From Alphaproteobacteria bacterium (lineage in GTDB: Bacteria; Pseudomonadota; Alphaproteobacteria; Rs-D84), in the NCBI GenBank assembly GCA_017443235.1, contig JAFSOV010000016.1, positions 9,525-73,524 on the forward strand: a stretch of DNA of 64,000 nucleotides, given 5' to 3'. The notes under the pieces were generated by a model. It worked only from the letters and a program-made list of their open reading frames with translations, was not told the origin of the DNA and did not search any database. A program made the translations under genes and the position numbers. This document shows, piece by piece, positions 3,417 through 47,693 of the stretch. Each line of letters begins with the position of its first letter. The stretch's first letter is position 1.

Positions 3417-3647
3417 ATGGCTTTTCAAAATAAAAATTTATCTGTGATTGCGTATGCCAATGGGTTCACACTGTGGCATTATGCCGCCAATGAAACATTG
3501 GCAACGATTACGGCAAGTGGCTACTTTAACGCGGTTAAAACGTTGATGAACACCGGCGATATGGTTTTAATCAATGCATCCGATAAAACGTCAATCAAAA
3601 AAATTGCGGTTGGCGACAGCGCGGTGACCACTGCGGCATTGGATTAA
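3417..3647 (+). CDS. small phage protein between capsid and tail tubular A
   Basis: GGGGTAAAAAATGG RBS. A 76-aa ORF in the operon context. Confidence 0.3.
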   Translation: MAFQNKNLSVIAYANGFTLWHYAANETLATITASGYFNAVKTLMNTGDMVLINASDKTSIKKIAVGDSAVTTAALD

Positions 3648-44552: not shown

Positions 44553-44948
44553 ATGAAAAAAAATGTAAAAAATTTAACTTTGTTGTCGCTGTTGGCGTTG
44601 ATGGGTTGTGCAAACAACAAAAATATTGTGACCGATGCAACAATGAAACGTGCGGTTTTGCGCGATGTTAAAACGGGTCGCGAACGTGTGTATGATGCAT
44701 CCAATGATGATGCGATGAAGATGGTTTTAATATGGTTGGCACCGGGCGATACGGTGACATTAAGGTCACACGATTATGCGCGTGGTACGTTCTTTACACC
44801 GGAAAATTCGCAACTGTTATACAATGATGCCGAATTGGCCCGCAGAAAAGATTTGTTCGAACGTGAAAAAATCAGACAAATGGTTAAAATTGAATTTGCA
44901 AAACAAGAAGAAATGAGACGCCAAATACGGAATAACAATCAAAAATAA
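44553..44948 (+). CDS. lipoprotein, hypothetical
   Basis: Lipobox LALMGCAN. Confidence 0.45.
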   Translation: MKKNVKNLTLLSLLALMGCANNKNIVTDATMKRAVLRDVKTGRERVYDASNDDAMKMVLIWLAPGDTVTLRSHDYARGTFFTPENSQLLYNDAELARRKDLFEREKIRQMVKIEFAKQEEMRRQIRNNNQK

Positions 44949-46597
44949 TGCTGCATACATCGGATTTTGATTTTGAATTGCCAACGGAATTGATAGCATC
45001 GCATCCATTGGAACGGCGCGATGCTTCGCGTATGTTGGTGGTCGTGCCAAATTCCCCTCTGACCAGAGGGGTGGTGGGTGAAACCCACCGGGGTGTCGCA
45101 CTAGAAGATAAACACATCCGGGATTTTTTGGATTACATTCAACCCGGCGATGTTGTTGTGTTTAATAATTCGCGTGTTATACCGGCGCGCTTTGATGCGG
45201 ATGGTCACGAAATCACGTTGCACACCGCGGTCGATGATAAAAATTGGTGGGGGCTGTGCAAGAAATTTAATAAAATACATATCGGCGACACATTGACTAT
45301 GTGTGACGGTACGACAATAACCGTTATGGATAAAGACGATGAAAGTGGCCTGTTGCTGCGCTTTAATTGTGACAATGTTTTTGATGTGTTGGGGCGGGTT
45401 GGAAAAATGCCGTTGCCACCATATATGAAACGCGAAGCCGAAATCGCGGACAGCGCACGTTATCAAACCGTCTATGCCGACCCGTTGGGGTCAATGGCGG
45501 CGCCAACCGCGGGTTTGCACTTTACCGATGAATTGATGCGCGAAATAGAATCGCGTGGCGCGAAAATTGTAAAGATAACTTTACATGTTGGTGCGGGCAC
45601 ATGGATGCCGGTCAAGACGGAAAATTTAAATGAACATAAAATGCACAGTGAATGGTGCTGTATCACGCCGGCCCAGGCGGAAATTATAAACAACGCCACG
45701 CGTGTAATCGCGGTCGGCACAACAACACTTCGCACCTTGGAATCCGCCGCCAAAGTTCCCCTCCCCGGAGGGGTGGCGGGTAGCACCCGCCGGGGAGGGG
45801 GTAAAAAGGATATTTGTATGAATTTGCCTGCAAACCACAAATTAAAATCTCGTGCGCGCGAATTACGCAAGGCCGGCAGTTTGCCCGAGGCATTATTGTG
45901 GAATGAAATAAAGGGCAAGCGCATATGCGGATTAGATTTTGATAGACAACATGTAATTGGTAACTATATCGTAGATTTCTTTTGTTCAGCCACAGGTTTC
46001 ATTATTGAAATTGATGATAAAACACACGAACTGAAAGGCGAATACGATGAGAAACGTGACGCATATCTTAAAAGTCTTGGGTTAACGATTATGCATATCC
46101 CGGCCTCGGATGTTTTGCAAAATCCTGCGGCGGTGGCCCATTGGATAGAAAATACTGTATCAAATACCCCCACCCCGTCGCCGTTCGGCGCCACCCCTCC
46201 GCCGGAGGGGAACTTGCCACATATGGAAAAAAATAAATTTTCAATCGCCTGTGGGTCATTGCAGACCGGGATGTGTGCGGAATTTGCAGAAACCAAAGTT
46301 CCCCTCCCCGGAGGGGTGGCGGGTGAAACCCGCCGGGGTGGGGCGCGTGTTGCACCGATTTGCCAAACCACCGATATTTTTATCACACCGGGATATAAAT
46401 TCCGTGCGGTTGATGTGTTGTTGACCAATTTTCACTTGCCAAAAAGTACACTGTTTATGTTGGTGTCGGCGTTTTCGGGGCTTAGTGAAATGAAGGCGGC
46501 GTACCGGCACGCCATCGCCGAAAAGTATCGTTTTTTCAGTTATGGCGATTGCTGTTTATTATTTAGAAAGGATTGCGAAAATGTCGTTAAAATTTAA
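44948..46597 (+). CDS. queA: S-adenosylmethionine:tRNA ribosyltransferase-isomerase QueA carrying in-frame insertions (549 aa against about 350)
   Basis: DFDFELP...VVFNNSRVIPAR...MAAPTAGLHFT...VIAVGTTTLRTLESAA | about 196 inserted aa | ICQTTDIFITPGYKFRAVDVLLTNFHLPKSTLFMLVSAF...KYRFFSYGD. Confidence 0.8.
   Translation: MLHTSDFDFELPTELIASHPLERRDASRMLVVVPNSPLTRGVVGETHRGVALEDKHIRDFLDYIQPGDVVVFNNSRVIPARFDADGHEITLHTAVDDKNWWGLCKKFNKIHIGDTLTMCDGTTITVMDKDDESGLLLRFNCDNVFDVLGRVGKMPLPPYMKREAEIADSARYQTVYADPLGSMAAPTAGLHFTDELMREIESRGAKIVKITLHVGAGTWMPVKTENLNEHKMHSEWCCITPAQAEIINNATRVIAVGTTTLRTLESAAKVPLPGGVAGSTRRGGGKKDICMNLPANHKLKSRARELRKAGSLPEALLWNEIKGKRICGLDFDRQHVIGNYIVDFFCSATGFIIEIDDKTHELKGEYDEKRDAYLKSLGLTIMHIPASDVLQNPAAVAHWIENTVSNTPTPSPFGATPPPEGNLPHMEKNKFSIACGSLQTGMCAEFAETKVPLPGGVAGETRRGGARVAPICQTTDIFITPGYKFRAVDVLLTNFHLPKSTLFMLVSAFSGLSEMKAAYRHAIAEKYRFFSYGDCCLLFRKDCENVVKI
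45054..45100. repeat. GC-rich palindromic element, diverged copy (in-frame in the queA N-terminal region)
   Basis: CCCCTCTGACCAGAGGGG TGGTGGGTGAAACCCACC GGGGTGTCGC encodes an extra SPLTRGVVGETHRGVA. Confidence 0.6.
45757..46342 (+). mobile_element. in-frame insertion in queA: a nested DUF559/Vsr-like endonuclease domain flanked by GC-rich palindromic elements
   Basis: Palindromic elements at 45757-45801 and 46300-46342 (CCCCTCCCCGGAGGGG TGGCGGGT-GAA/AGC-ACCCGCC GGGG...), with a partial copy at 46194-46210. An internal RBS AAAAAGGA and an ATG at 45818 start the DUF559-like sequence ARELRKAGSLPEALLWNEIKGKRICGLDFDRQHVIGNYIVDFFCSATGFIIEIDDKTHE...LGLTIMHIPASDV. Confidence 0.65.
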
Positions 46598-47693
46598 TTT
46601 GATTGCAACCGATGGAAATGCGCGGCGCGGATGCGTGGAGACCGCGCACGGAACATTTCAAACCCCAAGCTTTATGGCGGTTGGCACGGCGGCAACGGTC
46701 AAGGCACTTACCATGGACCAGGTTCGCGCGACCGGAACCGAAGTTATTTTGGGCAACACATATCATTTAATGATGCGCCCGGGCGGTGATTTGGTGGAAA
46801 GAATGGGCGGTCTGCACAAATTCGGTGGTTGGCACGGCCCGATTTTGACCGACAGTGGCGGGTTCCAGGTTATGTCGCTGTCTAATCTGGTCAAGATGAA
46901 AGAGCAGGGTGTAGAATTTACATCGCACATTGACGGCGGAATAAAACATTTCCTGCGCCCCGAAGATTCTGTGCATATTCAACATCAACTTGATTCAAAT
47001 ATCACAATGGTTTTGGATGAATGTTTACACCTGCCGACTACGCGGGAACGTGCGGAAAAAAATGTAGATATGGTGACGCGTTGGGCGGCGCGCAGTAAAA
47101 ACGCGTTCGTTGACCGACCGGGTTATGGAATTTTTGGCATTGTCCAAGGTGCAGATTTCCCAGACCTGCGCGAAAAATCTGCGCGGGAATTGACCGCAAT
47201 TGGTTTTGACGGATATGCGATTGGCGGCCTGGCCGTGGGTGAACCCCAGGAAGTCATGTTCAAAATGATTGAAACCGTTGCGCCAATGTTGCCAACCGAC
47301 AAACCGCGGTATTTAATGGGCGTTGGCACACCACTTGATATTTTGGGTGCGGTGGAACGCGGGGTTGATATGTTTGATTGTGTTATGCCAACACGCGCAG
47401 GCCGTACGGCAATGGCATTTACGCGCCATGGCACAATGAATATGCGCAACGCGAAATATCGTGATGACGCGTCTCCAATCGATGACAAATGTGGTTGTCC
47501 GGCGTGTAAACTTTCGCGCGCGTATTTGCATCACTTGATAAAGTGCAATGAAATTTTGGGCGCGACATTGTTGACACAACATAACCTTTGGTTCTATCAA
47601 GACCTGATGCGTGGCATCCGCGAAAGCATAGAGCAGGGGCGTTTCGCCGAATTTAAGGCGGAGTTTATAAAAAATTACACAGGGGAAAACTAA
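46581..47693 (+). CDS. tgt: queuine tRNA-ribosyltransferase
   Basis: ATDGNARRG...TPSFMAVGT... and a zinc site CGCPAC...H. It overlaps the queA end. Confidence 0.85.
   Translation: MSLKFNLIATDGNARRGCVETAHGTFQTPSFMAVGTAATVKALTMDQVRATGTEVILGNTYHLMMRPGGDLVERMGGLHKFGGWHGPILTDSGGFQVMSLSNLVKMKEQGVEFTSHIDGGIKHFLRPEDSVHIQHQLDSNITMVLDECLHLPTTRERAEKNVDMVTRWAARSKNAFVDRPGYGIFGIVQGADFPDLREKSARELTAIGFDGYAIGGLAVGEPQEVMFKMIETVAPMLPTDKPRYLMGVGTPLDILGAVERGVDMFDCVMPTRAGRTAMAFTRHGTMNMRNAKYRDDASPIDDKCGCPACKLSRAYLHHLIKCNEILGATLLTQHNLWFYQDLMRGIRESIEQGRFAEFKAEFIKNYTGEN

Follow-up and report, generated by a model that had tools for sequence, protein, structure and literature searches.

Introduction

How can a housekeeping gene carry an endonuclease domain in the middle of its coding sequence and still be read from start to stop? 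The question is raised by queA in a 64,000-nt stretch of DNA from an alphaproteobacterium of the order Rs-D84 (GenBank assembly GCA_017443235.1, contig JAFSOV010000016.1, positions 9,525 to 73,524 of the forward strand). The whole stretch is referred to here as the window, and coordinates without a locus name are positions in it. A first-pass annotation, made from the sequence alone, had read this queA as one continuous open reading frame (ORF) with two foreign inserts, the larger of which holds a nested DUF559 endonuclease, and had likened the arrangement to a selfish element of the homing-endonuclease kind. Known intragenic elements limit the damage to their host genes by RNA splicing, protein splicing, ribosomal bypass (T4 gene 60) or gene fracturing. 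The arrangement in queA combines a homing-endonuclease fold, inverted ends that resemble repetitive extragenic palindromes (REPs) and in-frame read-through in place of splicing. We propose that queA of the window probably hosts a non-splicing, in-frame, selfish mobile endonuclease cassette with REP-like ends, which is translated as a part of QueA.

Results

The queA reading frame

The single uninterrupted ORF was confirmed. queA spans 44948..46597 on the forward strand, encodes 549 aa and runs through both inserts, whose coordinates in the first-pass annotation proved accurate to a few bases when set against alleles lacking them (empty alleles). The QueA sequence itself lies in three segments, all on the forward strand. 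The N-terminal segment (44948..45047) extends up to the strand ...SRMLVV. The middle segment (45099..45749) takes in the beta-barrel and a portion of the catalytic domain, and ends in the helix TTTLRTLESAA. The C-terminal segment (46344..46597) begins with ARVAPICQTTDIFITPGY. The two outer segments were delimited by alignment with empty alleles and with the solved QueA structures (PDB 1yy3 and 1vky). Pfam recognized Queuosine_synth (PF02547) in the 549-aa protein with an E-value of 1.1e-110, split into two stretches, and placed DUF559 between them at aa 298-402 (E-value 4e-26). An empty QueA ortholog matched 1yy3 and 1vky with E-values of 4.7e-80 and 2e-79, respectively, and the same two structures headed the Foldseek matches.

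The window QueA keeps all invariant columns of the QueA alignment. Ratios of nonsynonymous to synonymous divergence (dN/dS) were calculated by the Nei-Gojobori method. For the QueA core they were 0.03-0.09 overall and 0.04-0.08 between the window and its relatives, and they were similar with or without an insert (window versus locus L001, 0.059; two empty alleles, 0.036). To judge from these substitution patterns, the window queA is a working gene under purifying selection, the insert notwithstanding, and catalysis by the fusion is predicted. A pseudogene, which the first-pass annotation had kept as an alternative, does not agree with a core dN/dS of about 0.05, as in empty alleles.

At the 3' end (46575-46597), the stop codon of the relatives is lost, and queA is six codons longer (CENVVKI), running into the start of tgt. 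The two genes overlap by 17 nt, the tgt start codon being the ATG at 46581.

Anatomy of the inserts

Insertions into QueA proteins concentrate at two positions, site A behind core residue 35 and site B behind core residue 256, and the inserts of the window measure 15 aa at site A and 195 aa at site B. Compared with the empty alleles of L001 and L005, site A has a net gain of 45 nt, by which VV[RDSG]VEDKH becomes VV[VPNSPLTRGVVGETHRGVA]LEDKH. Site B has a net gain of 573 nt, by which ESAA[RNATGG]ARVAPIC becomes ESAA-K[VPLPGG...RRGG]ARVAPIC, and the foreign DNA there extends over about 45750-46343.

Both inserts are built on a GC-rich element of about 51 nt with the description of a double hairpin, which we named E. 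Four copies were found in the window, three in forward orientation, E(+), at 45048-45098, 45750-45800 and 46293-46343, and one inverted, E(-), at 46168-46218. The copy at site A (45048..45098, +) stands alone in a beta-hairpin turn and encodes SPLTRGVVGETHRGV. It consists of the two hairpins CCCCTC-TGAC-CAGAGGGG and GGTGGGT-GAA-ACCCACC, and folds as DNA with -14.1 kcal/mol (z -3.0).

From left to right, site B (45750-46343) holds E(+), then DUF559 and E(-), then a spacer of 74 nt and a second E(+). The left E(+) (45750..45800, +) encodes VPLPGGVAGSTRRGG, has a DNA fold z-score of -4.8 and contains the left arm of a terminal inverted repeat, AAGTTCCCCTCC, at 45753-45764. It is followed by a Shine-Dalgarno-like AAGGA (45806-45810, +) and an in-frame ATG (45818-45820), a possible internal start. 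The DUF559 domain, a predicted Vsr-like PD-(D/E)xK endonuclease, covers 45839..46153 on the forward strand (aa 298-402) and lacks both a start and a stop codon of its own. E(-) lies right behind it (46168..46218, reverse strand), encodes TPTPSPFGATPPPEGNL and contains the right arm, GGAGGGGAACTT, at 46204-46215. Through the left E(+) and E(-), DUF559 is thereby framed by a terminal inverted repeat that is perfect over 12 nt. The 74-nt spacer (46219..46292, +) is unique sequence and encodes PHMEKNKFSIACGSLQTGMCAEFAET; with the E(-) and E(+) on its two sides it makes up an inverted doublet. The right-end E(+) (46293..46343, +) is 92% identical to the left copy and lies 543 nt (181 codons) from it. 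The spacer is unrelated to the equivalent spacer in locus L011.

Folding of the single strands as DNA gave two adjacent hairpins each for the site A solo copy and for the inverted one, and one long hairpin for either E(+) copy of site B. The z-scores were -2.6 to -4.8 for three of the four copies. A 27-nt E core was seen twice in the window, with 0 expected from 100 shuffles. No further E copy and no second DUF559 was found in the 64-kb window by pattern searches and tblastn. The earlier statement that each insert is bounded by a palindrome thus holds for site B, with E at each end plus an inverted copy; at site A a single solo element makes up the insert.

Polymorphism, gain and loss of the inserts

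In a protein search, QueA with a nested DUF559 was represented by over 100 clusters formed at 90% identity. These proteins had 480-718 aa and came from uncultured Alphaproteobacteria. About 20 QueAs of close relatives, with 337-351 aa, had no insert. States at the two sites were counted in an alignment of 120 QueA proteins. DUF559 was present at site A only in 33 proteins, at site B only in 31 and at both sites in 7; it was combined with a small insert at the other site in 18 (DUF559 at A) and 11 (DUF559 at B), and neither site was filled in 16. All combinations of states occurred among QueA cores about 90% identical to that of the window.

The 107 nuclease modules fell into about four major subtypes, every one of which was present at both sites. 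The closest counterpart of the module at site B of the window, with 82% identity, was found at site A of a different QueA, and for 18 of the 107 modules the nearest relative was at the opposite site. In protein P0004, the modules at its own sites A and B are 90% identical.

Gene order in L001, L003 and L005 is the same as in the window (MurJ, DPBB/SPOR, dCMP deaminase, Era, small ORF, queA, tgt). queA is empty in L001 and L005, and L003 has a cassette at site A. Since QueAs about 90% identical and in the same synteny lack inserts, and others carry varied subtypes, the inserts are mobile and not fixed in the clade. The comparison with close relatives that the first-pass annotation had suggested thus went in its favour: its alternative, an insert conserved in all QueA orthologs of the clade, is excluded by the polymorphism at two sites.

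Several loci preserve what look like stages of gain or loss. L011, whose QueA core is 92% identical to that of the window, has E-DUF559-E(-)-spacer-E at site A, and both its E(+) copies and the host flanks match the solo E of the window almost base for base. The solo E is therefore either a deletion scar, left by recombination between direct E copies, or a landing pad. A direct E repeat flanks both sides in 17 of the 107 modules. Footprints of E ends were found at nominally empty sites, namely AGAGGGGAACGT (NRGER) at site B of L011 and GGKL at site A of P0022 and P0023. In L141, a metagenomic locus of 2178 nt, QueA residues 1-35 are joined via a single DUF559 cassette to residues 260-336, and residues 37-259 are gone. 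This looks like a core deletion by recombination between A and B cassettes, which would have made queA a pseudogene.

Other variation was noted beside these states. A third QueA position (site C, after ...RFDA) carries a solo E (SPLARGVPGGTRRGVA) in L011 and L081, and queA of L081 (651 aa) combines a site A cassette, the site C solo E and a site B cassette. L003 (about 3500-3560), like P0007, P0008 and P0016, has a 42-nt insertion in the loop of the right-end palindrome (CCTCC-GAT...GAT-GGAGG), which suggests that the palindrome centre is itself an insertion target. A 134-aa ORF with no Pfam match lies downstream of queA in L003 (4530-4934) and upstream of queA in L011 (1730-2134), and is not in the window; it may be another movable gene.

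Location of the inserts in QueA

Because the full-length model of the window protein was poor in the QueA catalytic domain, the sites were placed by a model of an empty ortholog (predicted local distance difference test score, pLDDT, 72; predicted template modelling score 0.70) and by alignment gaps. In this model, residues 33-36 (site A) form the turn that connects two beta-strands, and residues 255-264 (site B) form a loop between a helix and a strand. Both coincide with gaps in the alignment to 1yy3 and 1vky. On the model, then, both inserts fall in QueA loops where indels occur naturally, which answers a check suggested in the first-pass annotation. In an AlphaFold2 model of the fusion, pLDDT was 87-96 over most of the nuclease domain and below 50 in the E-encoded stretches and the spacer. 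The E-encoded peptides are rich in Gly, Pro and Arg, which is consistent with a role as flexible linkers.

The nested nuclease

The first-pass annotation had called the DUF559 domain complete, and Pfam bears this out. The match to DUF559 (PF04480) scored 91.5 bits against a cut-off of 20.6 and covered profile positions 2-106 of 109. The module consists of about 110 aa of nuclease and the E-encoded linkers, and no other domain was detected in it by Pfam. In sequence, the nuclease matched PDB 3hrl, the DUF559 protein NGO0050 (E-value 3.8e-15, 37% identity). Foldseek retrieved the same structure with a template modelling (TM) score of 0.84 and a root-mean-square deviation (rmsd) of 2.1, and the catalytic domain of I-Bth0305I (3r3p_B) with a TM score of 0.73, an rmsd of 2.8 A and an E-value of 6e-3. 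A phmmer search against PDB with E-values up to 1 found 3hrl and not 3r3p. VSR, DUF559 and 3r3p have been placed in one clade of the PD-(D/E)xK classification (PMC3424549).

Residues D55, E66, D68, H72, D79 and R82 were invariant in 21 diverse members and present in more than 90% of the 107 modules; D, E-x-D, H, D and R are residues of catalytic type. The dN/dS of DUF559 modules was 0.05-0.1 (0.056 at a dS of 0.98 for L081 site B versus L061; 0.086 for the window versus L003). By this measure the nested nuclease is kept under purifying selection.

E-flanked DUF559 beyond queA

Metagenomes were searched with the nuclease profile, and 76 analysable DUF559 relatives were obtained. E(+) was found upstream in 67 and E(-) downstream in 67, and 61 had both, compared with a control background of 1.7-1.8% of 882 windows. 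The relative orientation of the flanking E copies was always the same. The termini A(A/G)TTCCCCTCC...GGAGGGGAA(C/T)T were conserved in about 70 cassettes.

Thirty-four of the 76 relatives were nested in frame inside long host ORFs. QueA was among these hosts. Type I HsdR accounted for about a dozen loci (L143-L149, L153-L157, L161, L164, L169, L187), and the remaining hosts were type ISP/IIG enzymes (L156, L194), N6/N4 DNA methylases (L150, L158, L195, L211), KsgA, whose domain is split by the insert (L142), and a radical-SAM YgiQ-like protein (L210). Five of the six host kinds are enzymes that use S-adenosylmethionine, which may be a coincidence.

Cassettes with the same E ends also stand free between genes. 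They are packed tightly, with a start codon that abuts or overlaps the upstream stop; one begins 3 nt past uvrB, and another overlaps a small ORF as TAATG. A protein search with the insert alone, which gave 186 candidates and missed full-length QueA hosts, served to find such free-standing copies. Viral contigs (IMG/VR) rarely contained either component (10 DUF559 relatives and 8 E matches).

Genomes were scanned for the E core (GTTCCCCTCC-n(2-4)-GGAGGGGTG), and at least 120 loci were found. The taxa among the matches listed were gut Alphaproteobacteria (Candidatus Enterousia and metagenome-assembled genomes (MAGs) of Rickettsiales), Verrucomicrobiota including an Akkermansia MAG, Bacteroidales, Kiritimatiellia, Binatia and others. 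The consensus of E is (A)AGTTCCCCTCC-nnn-GGAGGGGTG-[variable GNA-loop hairpin]-GGGGTGGT, and it has no GTAG or CGTC tag. Among the matches listed, 135 of 142 copies ended in GGGGTGG, 84 distinct middle sequences were present, a perfect stem of at least 4 bp was formed by 54% of copies versus 14% of shuffles, and the hairpin loops were mostly GAA, GCA or GTA. GNA triloops are characteristic of DNA mini-hairpins with very high stability. Together with the compensatory changes in the variable stem, these triloops point to recognition of E as a DNA hairpin. A shortened E that lacks the second hairpin (GGAGGGGTG-CA/TA/AA-GGGGTGGGT) made up 23 of the 142 copies among the matches listed; it occurred in Verrucomicrobiota and Bacteroidales, including the Akkermansia MAG (L025, L027, L034, L046, L048 and others).

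Solo E also occurs inside other genes. In-frame copies were found in MnmE (L045, at about aa 320), YchF (L091, at about aa 184), MutS (L096, reverse) and HsdR (L127, an E(-)/E(+) doublet), and in further conserved genes at L084 and L124. Such in-frame insertion into unrelated genes, in Alphaproteobacteria and other taxa, is behaviour like that of Rickettsia palindromic elements (RPEs).

Discussion

Proposed explanation

The proposal that queA hosts a mobile endonuclease cassette draws on the architecture, the polymorphism, the loop location, the purifying selection on host and nuclease, the tight E-DUF559-E association and the in-frame nesting in many host genes, all of which the sequences show. 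From these we infer the target of the nuclease, the homing mechanism and the expression of the fusion. The unit is a nuclease gene of about 110 aa, with no conserved start, stop or promoter, between inverted REP-like copies of E, and it has colonised two surface loops of QueA. Flexible E-encoded linkers would allow QueA to fold, with the nuclease hanging off as an extra domain. The host could stay in working order only if the length of the insertion is divisible by 3 nt, its frame contains no stop and it runs in the direction of the host gene, and the cassette would rely on host transcription and translation, through in-frame fusion or translational coupling.

The nuclease, kept active by selection, would probably work as a dimer and cleave or nick a pseudopalindromic sequence, for which the CCCCTCC-n-GGAGGGG hairpin of E or an unoccupied site is the most plausible candidate. 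In I-Bth0305I the nuclease domain mediates dimerisation, and a pseudopalindrome of 14 bp is recognised (PMC3239194); by analogy, the palindrome of E is a natural candidate target. Recombinational repair might then copy the cassette into E-bearing or empty sites with E as the homology, in a homing-like manner. Loss would follow when direct E copies recombine and leave a solo E, as at site A of the window, and imprecise deletion would leave short footprints.

Several points weigh against this proposal. Module pairs with a dS far below host dS, the mark of very recent transfer, were not found among the pairs with DNA. Same-subtype modules had dS of 1-2 and host cores 0.7-1.1, so that no demonstrably recent transfer was caught. 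Neither a target-site duplication nor a shared target motif was found at about 70 cassette junctions beyond the terminal inverted repeat. Insertion duplicates E and does not destroy it, unlike the recognition site in classical homing, and the cutting of E or of empty sites is an activity proposed by analogy. The full-length AlphaFold model was good for the nuclease and for the beta-barrel of QueA, and poor for the QueA catalytic domain (mean pLDDT 60). Because only the nuclease's own frame is open, survivorship forces the frame shared with the host, and an open frame is no independent proof of a fusion protein. All data are metagenome assemblies. Copies of E in the window are few (four, all within queA). 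Finally, DUF559 lay within 300 nt at 8 of the 120 E loci listed, and 112 were without it; E may be spread by something else.

Alternative explanations

That last point leads to the main alternative, in which E is an element like REPs or transposable elements of the miniature inverted-repeat kind (MITEs), moved by another enzyme, and DUF559 is cargo or a hitch-hiker whose activity serves, for example, repair, defence or anti-restriction. The scarcity of DUF559 near E and the nuclease-less solo E copies in frame in MnmE, YchF, MutS and HsdR fit such a view, as does the large share of restriction-modification enzymes among the hosts of nested copies; intragenic REPs and RPEs without a nuclease are known (PMC3733652). 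Seen from the nuclease, however, E is found on either side at far above the background of less than 2% and in constant orientation, a pattern like that of a repeat family and its dedicated enzyme (cf. REP and RAYT, the REP-associated tyrosine transposase), and no alternative mobilising gene was seen beside the cassettes examined. We therefore consider the cargo explanation unlikely, though it is the strongest of the competitors.

The nested DUF559 might instead be a domesticated domain of QueA, which would make a bifunctional enzyme kept for the benefit of the host. The embedded nuclease is indeed under purifying selection (dN/dS 0.05-0.1), the modules are old, as their high dS indicates, and they are widespread within the clade. 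However, the domain is missing from many QueAs about 90% identical and in the same synteny. It occupies two different loops with at least four subtypes interchangeable between them, and the cassette with the same ends also stands free between genes or is nested in unrelated enzymes. It also leaves decay products, namely solo E, footprints and the core deletion of L141. Domestication is accordingly improbable.

A third explanation, that the inverted E copies turn the DUF559 segment into an invertible, phase-variable switch of queA, is very unlikely. In its favour are the inverted repeats around the nuclease and a published enrichment (odds ratio 14) of 'DUF559 domain-containing protein' among predicted targets of programmed inversion (PMC9881135). 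The enrichment is probably due to the flanking inverted E repeats. In all ten of the queA-linked cassettes retrieved by DUF559 similarity alone, the nuclease points the same way as queA. The inverted repeat has little length, with 12 nt matching perfectly and 28 nt at 75%, and no invertase was noticed by the cassettes, whose neighbourhood was not searched systematically for one. A switch would also leave the two sites, the several subtypes and the nesting in many genes unexplained.

It is hardly credible, finally, that the insert is removed before the mature protein is made (as an intein, an intron or by translational bypass) or reflects a pseudogene or an assembly artefact: GC-rich hairpins do surround it and splicing is usual for mobile elements inside genes, but Pfam found no intein or Hint domain in the 549-aa protein, the junctions AA-K/VPLP and RRGG/ARVAP (K-V-P at the start, G-G/A-R at the end) are without intein splice-junction residues, an Rfam E-value scan of 44700-46800 for introns or other structured RNAs gave no intron family and only chance-level microRNA and small RNA matches, more than 100 clusters, assembled independently, keep the frame open over about 196 codons, the nested frame is under purifying selection though no start codon is conserved, and the QueA core is under selection. 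The domain search and the junction residues exclude an intein, a verdict the first-pass annotation had reached from the junctions.

Expression as part of QueA, with the insert not removed, is the most economical reading of the sequence, and the product would be a predicted protein of 61 kDa. The ribosome-binding site and ATG that had been assigned to the nuclease do exist in the window, where the ATG at 45818 is codon 291, in frame, with AAGGA 7 nt upstream. As a conserved internal start they were rejected, since relatives have Leu or Val in place of Met 291 (codon TTA in L003) and a Met at this position is missing from other subtypes.

Significance

No description of the in-frame E-DUF559-E arrangement was found in the openly accessible literature, and E-flanked DUF559 cassettes are apparently a widespread, seemingly undescribed kind of nested endonuclease element. 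Whether they amount to a distinct class of mobile element is nearly an even question, and we put it forward tentatively: they might be a "read-through" homing-type endonuclease gene whose hairpin ends double as linkers, spread over several phyla and many hosts.

If the proposal is true, there is a further way for a selfish nuclease to persist in an essential gene, namely to be read through as an extra domain. It would give a lead on the common DUF559 family in the form of a dedicated repeat, in a relation like that of RAYT and REP, and would explain the unusual "fusions" of DUF559 to enzymes of restriction-modification, to methylases and to enzymes that modify tRNA or rRNA. The cassettes would mark permissive loops, which are natural domain-insertion sites in QueA and other enzymes. 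The nuclease is possibly a compact sequence-specific enzyme of about 110 aa that may recognise a palindrome of 14-16 bp. The relatives include Candidatus Enterousia of the order Rs-D84, gut bacteria with genomes of less than 1 Mb (PMC12306168). In such reduced gut Alphaproteobacteria, the cassettes would show a way for mobile DNA to endure although little non-coding DNA is left for it to land in.

Comparison with known systems

Like MITEs and insertion sequence transposons, the cassette has terminal inverted repeats; unlike them, it shows no consistent target-site duplication, and DUF559 is no known transposase family. NGO0050 (3hrl) is the closest solved relative of the nested nuclease, but it is a free-standing protein for which neither nesting nor flanking repeats are reported. 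Endonuclease-bearing inteins resemble the cassette in their in-frame insertion into conserved enzymes, their patchy spread and the repeated use of sites. The cassette differs from them in having no Hint domain or junction residues, and its insert would stay in the mature protein.

A REPtron, in which inverted REPs surround the gene of a RAYT tyrosine transposase, shares with the cassette a single gene between inverted GC-rich hairpin repeats and a repeat that far outnumbers the gene, and the variable stem and GNA triloops of E suggest a similar recognition of DNA hairpins. In contrast to RAYT, the cassette protein is a Vsr-like PD-(D/E)xK enzyme and not a Y1/HUH one, and both repeats and gene would be translated within host proteins.

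Intragenic REPs and the RPEs of Rickettsia are known short palindromic repeats in genes (PMC3733652). Like solo E, they lie in frame in conserved genes of reduced genomes and are tolerated in loops. However, RPEs and REPs carry no gene, whereas E copies bracket a nuclease gene that would itself be translated in frame, and E has its own consensus and occurs in several phyla. Given its length of 45-51 nt and its many phyla, membership of E in RPE-1 to RPE-8 is unlikely. The resemblance to RPEs drawn in the first-pass annotation is thus apt for the in-frame insertion of palindromes, and E is a separate family, not a Rickettsia RPE.

The Vsr-like 'EDxHD' homing endonucleases, of which I-Bth0305I is the relevant example, are known in introns, inteins and fractured genes (PMC2677866, PMC3239194). 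The cassette lacks their N-terminal NUMOD/helix-turn-helix DNA-binding region, and its nuclease has no sequence-level match to 3r3p. It lies outside any intron, intein or gene halves, and its host is read straight through. It also has palindromic terminal inverted repeats, and it is chromosomal and rare in viral contigs. What the two have in common is the catalytic fold, the conserved acidic and His residues and the residence in housekeeping genes, and the fold of the I-Bth0305I catalytic domain supports the view that queA carries a homing-endonuclease-like selfish element that keeps the reading frame of its host.

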